Shown piece by piece: positions 12,001-18,000 of a stretch of 53,480 nucleotides of DNA. Made by a program: the position numbers. Within the stretch, counting starts at the first letter, position 1; every line of letters begins with the position of its first letter. Origin of the DNA: a virus (lineage: Duplodnaviria; Heunggongvirae; Uroviricota; Caudoviricetes); IMG/VR virus record IMGVR_UViG_648028025_000004. One strand, written 5' to 3'.

Positions 12001-15000
12001 ACGAGTATTGCCGGAAGCGAGGCCTGTATCCGGATGCGGAGTCTTATCCGTGGAAATCAAACGCGCACTACTGGCTGGTTACCAACCTGTATCAGAACAT
12101 GCGGGCCAATGCGCTTACTGATGCGGAATTACGCCGTAAGGCCGCAGATGAGCTTGTCCATATGACTGCGAGAATTAACCGTGGTGAGGCGCTCCCTGAA
12201 CCAGTAAAACAACTTCCTGTCATGGGCGGTAGACCTCTAAATCGTGCACAGGCTCTGGCGAAGATCGCAGAACTCAAAGCTAAGTTCGGACTGAAAGGAG
12301 CAAGTGTATGACGGGCAAAGAGGCAATTATTCATTACCTGGGGACGCATAATAGCTTCTGTGCGCCGGACGTTGCCGCGCTAACAGGCGCAACAGTAACC
12401 AGCATAAATCAGGCCGCGGCTAAAATGGCACGGGCAGGTCTTCTGGTTATCGAAGGTAAGGTCTGGCGAACGGTGTATTACCGGTTTGCTACCAAGGAAG
12501 AACGGGAAGGAAAGATGAGCACGAACCTAATTTTTAAGGAGTGTCGCCAGAGTGCCGCGATGAAACGGGTATTGGCGGTATATGGAGTTAAAAGATGACC
12601 ATCTACATCACTGAGCTAATAACAGGCCTGCTGGTAATCGCAGGCCTTTTTATTTGGGGGAGAGTAAATCGTGGCTGAGTTTATGCTCGTCGCACTCAAA
12701 TGCGTTGGCGTTTGATGGATTCTTCTGACGTTATTTATTGTTCTGCATAGCTACATTCGTCTTGTGAATGACGGTAAAGACCCATGGTATACGTTGTTTG
12801 GCGCTGCATTTGTCTGGGTGATTATCGGTGTTGCGCCTGTCGCTGTAGCAAAAATGGCGTGGCGTTTTGTGAGTTGAACTGAGGGTAAGTATCGATGGAC
12901 GAATCAAGAAAGCAGTTTGAGGAATACGTTGCCAAAAAATTGAGATTACCATTCGAGATGATAACCGAGGCAAGAAATGGTGATAGGTACTTCGCATTTT
13001 CAAGCATGGATATTCGTCACTCCTTAAATGAGTGGTGGACTTTATGGCAGGCATCGCGAGCAGCTATTGAACTGGATATCGACTGGCCAGAATCGAATGA
13101 CGACTTTTGGAAAGATGGTGAAGAAGGTGCTTATGCGATGGGTTATGAGGATGGGCGTGACAAAACGGTAATTGCAGTAATGAAAGCTATCAGAGCCGCT
13201 GGAATTAAAGAGAAGAATTTCGATGAAGCAAACAATATTCCTCCGAACTAAGCAACAACAGCAAGCCGCAATCAACGCCATCCTCGCAACACCACTCGAT
13301 AAAGACAAGCCAGTCACCATCCGCATTACTGACTACAAGCGCAACCTTGACCAGAACGCAAAATTTCACGCGATGCTGGCGGATATCGCACGTCAGGTTC
13401 AATGGTGCGATAAGTGGTTAAAACCAGAACAATGGAAGGTTTTGTTGATTAGCGGTCATGCAGTGGCAACAAAGCAGGAAGCTGATGTTTTGCCCGGCCT
13501 TGAAGGCGAATACGTCAACATTCGCGAAAGTAGCGCGCAGATGAGTGTGAAGCGTATGGCAAGTCTGATTGAGTACACGACAGCATGGGCTATTGGTCAG
13601 GGCGTCAGATTTACCGACAGGAGGTACGAATGAGACGACAGCGACGAAGTATCACCGACATAATCTGTGAAAACTGCAAATACCTTCCAACGAAACGCTC
13701 CAGAAATAAACGCAAGCCAATCCCAAAAGAATCTGACGTAAAAACCTTCAACTACACGGCTCACCTGTGGGATATCCGGTGGCTAAGACATCGTGCGAGG
13801 AAATGACAATGCTTTTAATTCAACCTGGATTTGGACTTAGCATCAAAAAAGGCCACATGTTTGGCGAGAAAGAGTCACAACGAAAAATGGTGTCTATCCG
13901 GTTGCCATTTATCAGTATTTATTGGCTAAACAGGGAGGCAACAAATTATTGGTATACATGCGCCAGAGCAGCATTTAACGACCCTGACTGGTTTGTGAAA
14001 AACCACTGAACCGCCCCGGGTTTCCTGGAGAGTATTTTATCTGTGAACTCAGGCTGCCAGATCATTATTTCCGATGGAAGCATAATAAGCTTTTTCTGCT
14101 TCTGCCGGAGGAATATGGCCCAGCCTTTCCAGCAATCGTCGATTGTTATACCAGTCCACCCACGTTAGTGTGGCCAGTTCCACTTCTGTCCGGTTTTTCC
14201 AGCTATTACGGTGTATTACCTCCGCTTTGTAAAGACCATTGATGCTCTCAGCCATCGCGTTGTCATACGAGTCGCCAGTACTCCCTGTTGATGCCAGTAA
14301 TCCGGCTTCCTTAAGCCGCTGCGTGTAGGCCAGCGATACATACTGAGAACCTTTATCACTGTGATGGATTGTGCCGGACGGCCGACGGGCCCACAACGCC
14401 TGCTCCAGTGCATCCAGCACGAATGTTGTTTCCATGGATGATGAGACCTGCCATCCCACGATGTATCCGGCGAACACATCAATGATGAACGCCACATAAA
14501 CGAAGCCCTGCCATGTGCTTACCCAGGTAAAATCAGCCACCCACAACTGGTCTGGACGTTCTGCCACGAACTGACGGTTTACGCGGTCGCATGCGGCAAC
14601 GGCTTTCCGGCTGACGGTAGTGCGGACCTTTTTACCCCGGAGAACACCGGCAAGTCCCATAACTGCCATGAGACGTGCCACAGTGCATCTGGCCACTCTG
14701 ATACCTTCCCGTAACAACTGACGCCAGACTTTACGCACACCGTATACCTGGTGATTTTCATCGTATACGCGCTGTATCTCTTTCTTCAGCCAGTCATCGT
14801 GCTGCGCACGGGCACTGCGTTTATCCGGATGATGTCGCTGTTGCTGACAATGGTAATACGTTGACGGGGCAATATGCAGTTCGCTGCATACCGGTCCGAC
14901 CCCGTACTGCTCACGCAGCTTATCCAGCAGTGGCATCATTTTTTCCAGAGGCGGTCGAACTCCGCCTTCGCAAAATAAGCGGAAGCCTGGCGAAGGATAT

Positions 15001-18000
15001 CGTTACTGCGGCGCAGTTCACGATTTTCACGTTCCAGCTCTTTCAGACGCTGACGTTCAGCACTGGTGAGCCCACCATCACCGCCCCCGGTATCCCGCTC
15101 ATGCTGGCGAACCCAGACACGCAGAGTCTCCGGCGTACAGCCAATCTTTGGGGCAATGGAACAAATTGCCGCCCACTGTGAGTCATATTCATCCTGACTT
15201 TCCAGAACCATACGAATCGCCCGCTGACGGACTTCGGGGGAAAAACGAGTATTTTTAGTCATCCTGTTTACCTCTTTCTCAGGGAGTTTAGTCTCCAGGA
15301 TTTCCGGGGCGGTTCACACCACGCAGTTCGTCAGGCAAAGAGAAAGGCCAATATGACATACATGAAGGCGTATCAAAAAGCATGGAAAGAACACCGCGAT
15401 CGATACCAACAAGACATGGAAAAGCTTGAATCAGAAAACATGGAATTAAGACGAAAGCTCGGTGAAGCAAAACGAGACATTGATGCTTACAAGCGACTTT
15501 TTAATGGTGAAAGCCATGCTTAGCCCATCCCAATCCCTTCAATACCAGAAAGAAAGCGTCGAGCGAGCTTTAACGTGCGCTAACTGCGGTCAGAAGCTGC
15601 ATGTGCTGGAAGTTCACGTGTGTGAGTACTGCTGCGCAGAACTGATGAGCGATCCGAATAGCTCAATGTACGAGGAAGAAGACGATGAATGAGTTAATAA
15701 ATGGCAATGCCATCAAAATGACAAGCATTGAAATAGCTGAGTTGGTGGGTAAGCGTCATGACAATGTGAAACGTACCATCGAAACGCTGGCTAAAAATGG
15801 TGTTATCCGGCTTCCTCAAATTGAGGTTTCCGAAAGAATCAATAACTTAGGGTTCAATGTTCAGTACGAGCATTACGTCTTCGAGGGCGAACAAGGTAAG
15901 CGAGACAGTATTGTCGTTGTTGCCCAGTTGTCGCCAGAGTTCACCGCTCGTCTTGTTGACCGTTGGCGAGAGCTTGAAGAAACTGCGGTTAATATCCCCA
16001 AAACGTTACCGGAAGCGTTGCGCCTTGCTGCTGATCTTGCTGAGCAGAAAATGCAACTGGAAAACCAGCTCGCAATTGCCGCACCTAAAGTTGAGTTTGC
16101 CGATCGCGTTGGCGAGGCCAGCGGAATTTTGATTGGAAACTTTGCAAAGGTTGTTGGTATTGGTCCAAACAAACTGTTTGCGTGGATGCGCGATCACAAA
16201 ATCCTTATTGCTTCAGGTTCCCGGCGCAATGTGCCAATGCAGGAATATATGGATCGCGGCTATTTCACAGTGAAAGAAACAGCGGTCAACACAAATCACG
16301 GAATACAGATATCGTTCACCACAAAAATCACCGGGCGTGGTCAACAGTGGCTGACCAGAAAGCTGCTCGATAACGGAATGCTGAAAGTAACAGGGGAGGC
16401 TGCTTAATGGCTAACCTACGCAAAGAATCTCGCGGCAGAGAATGCCAGGTACGTATTTACGGCATATGCAATGGCAATCCTGAAACTACAGTTCTGGCAC
16501 ATTACCGGATGGCTGGAATTTGCGGAACGGGAATGAAGCCTGACGACCTGATCGGCGCATGGGCTTGTAGCGCGTGTCACGATGAAATCGACCGACGCAC
16601 CCATAACCTCGACAACAAAGACGCCAGACTTTACCACCTCGAAGGCGTGATCAGGACGCAGGCGATACTGCTGAAGGAGGGGAAGATTAAGTCATGAACG
16701 AATATCAGTTTGTGCTTCCATACCCGCCGTCGGTGAATACCTACTGGCGAAGACGGGGAAGCCAATACTACATCAGCGATAAAGGCCAGAAATACCGAAA
16801 AGACGTTCAGCAAATCATCCACCAACTCAAGTTAGATATTTTCACCAAATCACGACTCCGCATCAAAGTAATCGCAGACGTTCCAGACTCCCGCCGCCGC
16901 GACCTAGATAACATCCTGAAGGGTTTACTCGACTCCCTTATCCATGCCGGATTTGCGGAAGACGACGAGCAATTCGATGACATTCGCGTAATTCGTGGTG
17001 TGAAAGTACCAGGCGGACGGCTTGGAATAAAAATCACCGAACTGGAGAACGCATGAACGCCACAATTCAAACGATACCAGAGCTTCTTATCCAGACACGA
17101 GGCAATCAGACCGAAGTGGCGAGGATGCTTTCCTGCGCAAGAGGAACAGTGCTCAAGTACAACCGAGACAGCAAAGGCGAGCGTCATGTAATAGTTAACG
17201 GCGTCCTGATGGTCAAACAGGGCAAGAGGGGAAGACGATGAGACTCGAAAGCGTAGCTAAATTTCATTCGCCAAAAAGCCCGATGATGAGCGACTCACTA
17301 CTGGCCACAGTTTATTGGTTTTCGTAACTGAGTCATTTTATTATTTTATTGCAACTTTTAATCTTTTATAGTGCGAAATAAATGGAGCTGGCATTCATTT
17401 CGCACTTTATGTTTTTGTTGGACTTATGTTATTTTGATTGAATTCAATTCAGTTAAAAAAAGAAGGTGATTGCTCCATTTATAAATGAATAGTCATCCCC
17501 TGTCTTGAATTCTGATGTTACTTTATTAAATGCTAGTGTGAAGGCTACAGGTGCATACCCAATTGTTGCGCCAACTTGATATTCATCAACAGTTTTGTTT
17601 AGCGATACTGTTGTTTGTTTCGTCTGTATTGTTTTTCCTTCGAGAGTATAGTTGCGATTGACATCTCGTCTTTCCATACCTGCAAAAATCTTGTATTTGA
17701 ATCCGCTTGTATCGGACATATGCATTAAACCACGGGGAGCCAGCAGACCAAAGCCATTATCCGAATTGAAGGTTTTATCATTACCAATGGCAATGGTTGC
17801 GCCATATGCTACATATTGAAATAAGTTTCCAGTAACAGCAGAAACTTCAGGGTATAATCCAACATTAGCACCTAAAATATCCATACTTGGTGTCATGGAT
17901 AGCATCCCTTTTACAGTATAACCGTAGCGATTCTCTATTTGATCATCCCATGCATGATATTTTTCTGCCCCAATAATCTCATGAGCTTTATTTTGTACTT

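Follow-up and report, generated by a model that had tools for sequence, protein, structure and literature searches.

How does a gene in the nin region of a lambdoid prophage come to be cut in two by an insertion sequence (IS), and what becomes of the element once it is there? The question is raised by a stretch of viral DNA of 53,480 nucleotides (nt), IMG/VR record IMGVR_UViG_648028025_000004. This whole stretch, hereafter the window, runs from ybhC to espJ, ending exactly at the end of espJ, and holds a lambdoid prophage of Escherichia coli O26:H11 integrated at the lambda attB site (ybhC). The original prediction, made from the sequence alone, was that a 1310-bp IS629 with a CAC duplication interrupts an open reading frame (ORF) of the nin region. 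We confirm this insertion at the coordinates first proposed, and we conclude, with a probability of about 0.93, that an intact IS629 of the O26 type lies between the codons for His66 and His67 of a nin-region gene of the family phrog_1511 and was probably later excised in sister strains.

Reading of the sequence from 13300 to 16100, combined with in silico excision, places the IS at positions 14007-15316, a span of exactly 1310 bp. Its left end is TGAACCGCCCCGG and its right end is CCGGGGCGGTTCA; the termini are thus TGAACC...GGTTCA, that is, inverted repeats of the TG...CA kind. The element is bracketed by a CAC on the left (14004-14006) and a CAC on the right (15317-15319), and the right copy is followed directly by a second, native CAC at 15320-15322. 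In the O26:H11 strain FWSEC0001 the empty allele reads AAAAACCACCACGCAG, with CACCAC at the site. The occupied site has three CACs and the empty one two, so the repeat is a real target-site duplication of 3 bp rather than a coincidence. Other IS copies in sister genomes are flanked by duplications of TTC and CATA. The insertion point falls exactly between the His66 and His67 codons (CACCAC) of a gene of 133 amino acids (aa). Its 5′ fragment (13809-14006, plus strand; codons 1-66) ceases to be translated immediately, at a TGA made up of the opening bases of the IS, and its 3′ fragment (15320-15523, plus strand) comprises codons 67-133 and the TAG stop, with an internal ATG at 15353 that opens a mechanical ORF of 56 aa. 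In strain E2865 the Prokaryotic Genome Annotation Pipeline (PGAP) labels both gene halves as pseudogene fragments, the same 5′ fragment being described as ‘missing C-terminus’. Joining 13809-14006 to 15320-15523 in silico yields an ORF of 402 nt and 133 aa; the continuity foreseen in the original prediction therefore holds, and its length of about 132 aa is corrected to 133. The restored ORF, with its TAG at 15521-15523, overlaps the ATG of ninF (15516-15518) within ATGCTTAG, as had also been proposed. Nothing that we found contradicts the insertion itself.

The sequence of the element has the features of a complete member of the IS3 family. Both transposase genes are on the minus strand, antisense to the nin genes. 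orfA (14936-15262, 108 aa) encodes a helix-turn-helix protein (Pfam HTH_Tnp_1, E = 2.4e-12), and orfB (14049-14939, 296 aa) encodes a DDE integrase core (Pfam rve, E = 2.4e-26; HTH_21, E = 2.7e-18) that also matches the NCBIfam model transpos_IS3 at 312 bits. The two genes overlap at a slippery run of six A residues at 14939-14944, and at 14865-14981 on the minus strand lies the ALIL pseudoknot, through which IS3-family transposases undergo programmed -1 frameshifting. This Rfam match (RF01497) is full-length (1-117 of 117) and scores 121.5 bits, the gathering score being 50. A search of 13700-15700 returned a single inverted repeat, the terminal pair of the IS, with 41 nt that are 76% complementary: the orfB-distal repeat (right inverted repeat, IRR) at 14007-14047 and the orfA-side repeat (left inverted repeat, IRL) at 15276-15316. 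All of the characteristics of the IS3 family are present, namely a length of about 1.2-1.5 kb, TG...CA repeats, a helix-turn-helix OrfA with a DDE/rve OrfB, a -1 frameshift and a target-site duplication of 3-4 bp (here CAC). For an identical copy in E2865, PGAP records an intact transposase that uses a programmed frameshift. The element, of which the window holds only one copy, is therefore intact and presumably active.

We then compared the site in related genomes, an in silico version of the polymerase chain reaction (PCR) across the site that had been suggested as a check, and found empty, occupied and scar states. The occupied state, an identical configuration of 1715 bp aligned as one BLAST piece, is present in 17 complete genomes, of which those with a serotype label are O26; identities range from 98.8 to 100%, with 16 of the 17 at 100%. 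No occupied site was found among the phage records of the phage collection. Nine more genomes have the right junction only. In one sequence of this kind, PV0838 (4181-10257), two oppositely oriented copies of IS629 enclose an inverted stretch reaching from cII through the 5′ half of the gene, and an inversion of the PV0838 type explains the nine genomes. The empty site (CACCAC) is seen in FWSEC0001 and in several other O26 genomes with the same prophage, where the ORF is identical to the restored one. The flanks in the window are 100% identical to FWSEC0001 over 2878 and 1684 nt, and the IS itself shows no difference from copies in O26 genomes (100% identity). Because the site is polymorphic, is empty in the same prophage and has flanks without a single difference, the insertion is recent and restricted to a lineage, in agreement with what had been predicted.

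The third state has a single CAC. In the O26 strain RM8426 the nin ORF contains AAAAACCACGCAG and is 399 nt long, encoding 132 aa (WP_032341936.1). Among 347 genomes with the gene segment, this allele occurs in four at full identity and in one with a single mismatch, and all of the one-CAC genomes carry this prophage. RM8426 matches the window exactly over 1-24500 and with one mismatch over 24254-53480, and there are two further differences: the one-CAC state of the nin ORF, and a copy of IS629 placed in a TolA-like pseudogene. That copy lies at 10865-12175 of the RM8426 locus with a TTC duplication, and the matching site in the window (9362-9364) is empty. RM8426 has no other IS629 in the region, and it and the window differ essentially in the location of IS629. 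Strain 12689 has the sequence of the window without the IS and 6 bp. A simple insertion into the one-CAC allele should produce CAC-IS-CAC, whereas CAC-IS-CACCAC is observed, so the state in the window cannot be derived from that allele. Conversely, loss of the IS together with 6 bp (1316 bp in total) between CAC repeats fits an excision scar. We infer from these alignments that in the sister strains the same IS copy was later excised, leaving one CAC and an in-frame allele of 132 aa.

A second locus in the same prophage tells a similar story. E2865 carries a copy of IS629 at the junction of a deletion in the immunity region (the sieB′/cII′ junction), reading GGATGGAG, then the IS, then GCGTGATGTTG. 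In the window, RM8426, 12689 and 2014C-3057 the corresponding sequence at 10447/10448 is GGATGGAGTGTTG, which is the E2865 sequence lacking the IS and GCGTGA, a loss of 1316 bp as in the nin ORF; the microhomology here is TG. The junction at 10447/10448 in the window is thus an apparent second scar of IS629 excision. When the two sites are considered together, all four combinations of states occur: E2865 has the IS at both; the window and 2014C-3057 have the scar at the sieB′/cII′ junction and the IS in the nin ORF; 7_14_47A has the IS at the junction and the scar in the nin ORF; RM8426 and 12689 have scars at both. As scars are not reversed by re-insertion, these combinations call for at least three excisions, with one identical scar arising twice, a count that holds unless recombination has shuffled the two sites, which are 3.5 kb apart. 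Recurrent excision at both sites would mean that natural excision of IS629 in O26:H11 is frequent and that its outcome is determined by the sequence, being directed by microhomology; we regard the chances of this as evenly balanced.

A known activity could account for such scars. The IS-excision enhancer (IEE) is described in published work as having two effects on IS3-family elements, simple excision and deletion of flanking DNA, the deletions ranging from a few nt to more than 40 kb, and as joining ends in vitro on 3′ overhangs with at least 4 bp of homology. The gene iee is, according to the literature, carried on SpLE1-like elements of O26:H11, and cases described include IS1203v lost from stx2 and, in O121:H19, IS600 lost from lacZ (PMC9397093; Calvo et al. 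2023, PMC9943667). The present scars resemble those cases in that an IS3-family element has been lost from a gene, with restoration of frame, in a lineage of enterohaemorrhagic E. coli (EHEC) said to carry iee, and in that the joints have small flanking deletions and short microhomologies (CAC; TG). Specifically, 1316 bp are missing between CACs at one site and 1316 bp with TG at the other, which fits the loss of zero to a few flanking bp and the microhomology joint expected of IEE excision; intact copies of the IS629 transposase are also present. The excision was probably mediated by IEE. The differences are that excision here is deduced from genome comparison and not observed, and that the product is not a precise empty site, as the IS and 6 bp are gone at both scars and, in the nin ORF, one conserved His codon is lost.

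Two points weigh against the reading of insertion followed by excision. The scar microhomologies of 2-3 nt are below the 4 bp or more that IEE joins efficiently in vitro, and a 3-bp slippage deletion in CACCAC could in principle yield the 132-aa allele with no IS involved. This last point is the basis of the best surviving alternative, in which the one-CAC allele of RM8426, 12689, 7_14_47A and similar strains arose by slippage in an ancestor that never held the IS; a tandem trinucleotide repeat can drop one unit, and the allele keeps the reading frame and has an ordinary protein annotation (WP_032341936.1). Nevertheless, the allele is confined to those four or five of the 347 genomes, all with the prophage of the lineage that holds the IS at that exact position, and the two His residues are invariant across the protein family. 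Furthermore, RM8426 and 12689 share with the window the derived IS600 insertion and the sieB′/cII′ deletion scar and show no other difference from it over 24-53 kb, so that their ancestor was most parsimoniously IS-bearing, and the other prophage site has lost IS629 plus 6 bp, which slippage cannot produce. We therefore consider slippage unlikely, and favor excision of the inserted IS629. A further alternative, that the IS at 14007 is an assembly artefact in which a repeat was collapsed or misplaced, draws on the multicopy nature of IS629 (9-18 matching places per record in the strains with an occupied site) and was rejected as extremely improbable, because the 17 independent complete genomes come from several laboratories and agree on the 1715-bp configuration, and because a clean CAC duplication is present.

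The remaining alternative, that the flanking ORFs (80 or 66 aa, and 56 aa) are independent small genes with an IS between them and that the restored ORF is a coincidence, is contradicted by the homologues of the restored protein. The similarity search that had been proposed as a check returned full-length homologues: the protein aligns with phrog_1511 along all 133 of its positions (1-133; E = 1.5e-86), and the restored ORF is 100% identical at the nucleotide level to ECs_2979 (WP_000924601.1). The uninterrupted gene is present in 57 phage records and, at a coverage of at least 80%, in 387 of the complete E. coli genomes, which number 5,426; an identity of at least 99% is reached in 227 records, and ninF always comes directly after the gene. 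Each half does match a PHROG family of its own, phrog_28676 (80 positions, E = 3.5e-49) and phrog_18832 (56 positions, E = 2.1e-43), but these two profiles equal, end to end, the mechanical ORFs that the IS created (13767-14009 and 15353-15523). The matches include a 14-residue extension from a GTG start and the stop supplied by the IS. Judged by these matches, both families appear to be artefacts built from split copies of phrog_1511 and not separate genes. Moreover, no part of the family is better conserved than the residues at the junction, NHHAVRQAKR. Two independent genes are thus refuted, and the restored 133-aa ORF is taken as the interrupted gene in what follows.

In the Sakai strain this gene is ECs_2979 of the Stx1 prophage Sp15, between ninE (ECs_2980) and ninF, and it also adjoins ninE and ninF in FWSEC0001 and in phage records. 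The identity, the ninE-ninF slot and the stop/start overlap are all shared with the window, and the difference is that the gene is uninterrupted in Sp15 (H0039 of VT1-Sakai) and split by the IS here. A tblastn search found the gene in 58 phage records, always beside ninF, with E. coli, Salmonella and Yersinia as hosts. The carriers include VT1-Sakai (H0039), HK629/HK630 and mEpX2; P22-like Salmonella phages have a homologue at 82-87% identity and Yersinia phage PY54 one at 47%. Among 5.8 billion proteins there are 81 clusters of homologues; those labelled with an organism are from Enterobacteriaceae (one being a phage record), and none of the 81 has a functional name, all being called ‘hypothetical’. 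In an alignment of 21 full-length members the best-conserved segment is N65-H66-H67-A-V-R-Q-A-(K)-R, with H66 and H67 invariant. An AlphaFold2 model of the 133-aa protein (mean predicted local distance difference test score, 76.6) has a four-stranded sheet and a helix in residues 1-57 and a single long helix in residues 67-128. In this model the IS cuts the hinge between a small beta/alpha N-terminal domain and a long C-terminal helix. Foldseek searches with the model gave no significant match in BFVD beyond the protein's own family and none in PDB, and sequence searches gave only sub-threshold coiled-coil noise in Pfam and nothing in NCBIfam. We also noted a protein of 121 aa, annotated as a CII family regulator, that is 100% identical to half of the interrupted ORF, which suggests another IS-mediated fusion or rearrangement of the region in a further O26 strain.

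The name of the element requires a qualifier. Of 7,013 matching records, only 133 have a copy at least 99% identical to the IS in the window. This IS has an identity of 99.6% to an element of phage BP-4795 that was named IS629 by its depositors, of 96.1% to the IS629 of phage 2851, and of 96% to the copy shared by O157:H7 and O111:H8 strains (called IS1203 by PGAP), from which it differs by 52-54 substitutions (about 4%) with no gaps. ISfinder treats elements with more than 90% nucleotide identity as isoforms. Membership of IS629, isoforms included, follows from this near-identity, the comparison set being the BP-4795, 2851 and O157/O111 copies. The name IS629 is thus right at the level of the isoform, and the element is to be called an O26-type isoform of IS629. 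Rump et al. (2011) distinguished three sub-types of IS629 (I-III) that are 55-60 bp apart: sub-type I is IS1203-like and predominant in O157, sub-type II is like the Shigella element and type III is like the O26:H11 element (PMC3271280). From the sequence comparison we infer that the copy in the window is the O26 type, sub-type III of these authors. It is comparable to the IS629/IS1203 insertions in the prophages of O157:H7 on which IS-printing is based: the length of 1310 bp, the TG...CA ends, the orfA/orfB -1 frameshift and the 3-4-bp duplication are the same, as are the tendency to insert in prophage genes and the use of presence or absence as a strain marker (PMC3271280). The differences are the sequence, about 4% apart, and the host, which is O26:H11 and not O157.

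The decay of the prophage, which is defective in many places, was judged against the same prophage in FWSEC0001. Relative to that strain, the window has a deletion of 3,081 bp with its junction at 10447/10448 (10440-10455). The deleted segment covers the 3′ portion of sieB, a trio of small ORFs on the minus strand at the position of the lambdoid N gene, a cI-like repressor, an ORF at the position of cro and the 5′ end of cII; from the lambda gene order, pL and pR were presumably lost with it. The nin genes have no native promoter in this prophage, so the effect of splitting ECs_2979 on phenotype is here probably nil. A scan for promoters and terminators over 13.5-15.8 kb gave no hits above those in shuffled sequence. 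The original prediction also held that some of the decay is driven by insertion sequences, and this is supported, more strongly by the neighboring deletion than by the nin insertion: the IS629 at the E2865 junction lacks a flanking duplication, which is the signature of an IS-adjacent deletion, and the immunity-region deletion is the strongest evidence for IS-driven decay. In replication gene O (about 11105-11170), about 66 nt between iteron-like repeats (ATCCCTCAAAAC...) are missing relative to FWSEC0001; the gene is frameshifted, and the loss takes out iterons of the presumed origin.

Other elements add to this picture. IS600 (7314-8577, 1264 bp) lies between the erf and kil regions with a TTC duplication (7311-7313 and 8578-8580); this insertion is common to the window, RM8426 and 12689 and is absent from E2865, 2014C-3057 and 7_14_47A. 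E2865 has IS600 in ninF in place of the 7314 site. None of the 5,426 complete genomes shares with the window both the IS600 at 7314 and the IS629 at 14007 while lacking any further IS629 in 6500-16500; the closest are RM8426, 12689 and 2014C-3057. An IS66-family element, ISEc22 (tnpA, tnpB and transposase), maps to about 30220-33170 by coordinates transferred from the RM8426 annotation; it is flanked by truncated genes for the S49 head protease and for gpU, and the intervening head genes are missing. A second IS66-family element, similar to ISCro1, is at about 48.7-51.3 kb. Immediately around the insertion, the upstream neighbor is ninE (13630-13806, plus strand, 58 aa; Pfam NinE PF05322, E = 7e-44, 1-58 of 58) and the downstream neighbor is ninF (15516-15692, plus strand; Pfam NinF PF05810, E = 2.3e-12), and NinB was identified by Pfam farther upstream. 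lpxR, a moron encoding a lipid A deacylase, lies beside a truncated antiterminator (a Q-like gene) at about 17450-18410, and the type III effector genes nleH, cif and espJ, together with a DUF1076 gene, are found at about 45775-53480.

These observations provide the basis for a proposed history of the locus. On the best reading, IS629 transposed by a copy-out/paste-in route into the CACCAC of the 133-aa nin gene, duplicating CAC and splitting the gene, with the 5′ fragment closed by the TGA at the end of the IS. The event is young, as it is polymorphic in O26:H11 and neither the flanks nor the IS have diverged. It is almost without biological consequence, because the prophage had already lost, or lost at about the same time, N, cI and cro and presumably pL and pR. 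The prophage is also damaged at ori and the O gene and has no head genes. In sister strains, a later excision, most likely dependent on both transposase and IEE, may have rejoined the ends through microhomology and left one CAC.

The event is of a known kind and ordinary biology, already annotated by PGAP as an IS and two pseudogene fragments. The insertion alone matters little, as it affects an accessory gene in a prophage that has no early promoters, repressor or head genes and whose replication origin is damaged. Among database families, phrog_28676 and phrog_18832 can be flagged as artefacts of a split gene. The suggestion that this IS629 is a useful marker for strain typing stands in so far as the site is polymorphic, and is weakened by excision, which leaves the one-CAC scar in sister strains. 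The site is better viewed as a marker with three clean states (empty, occupied and scar) that can separate sub-lineages of O26:H11 but is homoplastic through excision. If excision is indeed frequent, the presence or absence of IS629 would be homoplastic and unreliable as a phylogenetic marker. The locus records gain of IS629, IS-adjacent deletion, inversion and excision in wild EHEC, and complements the laboratory work on IEE.

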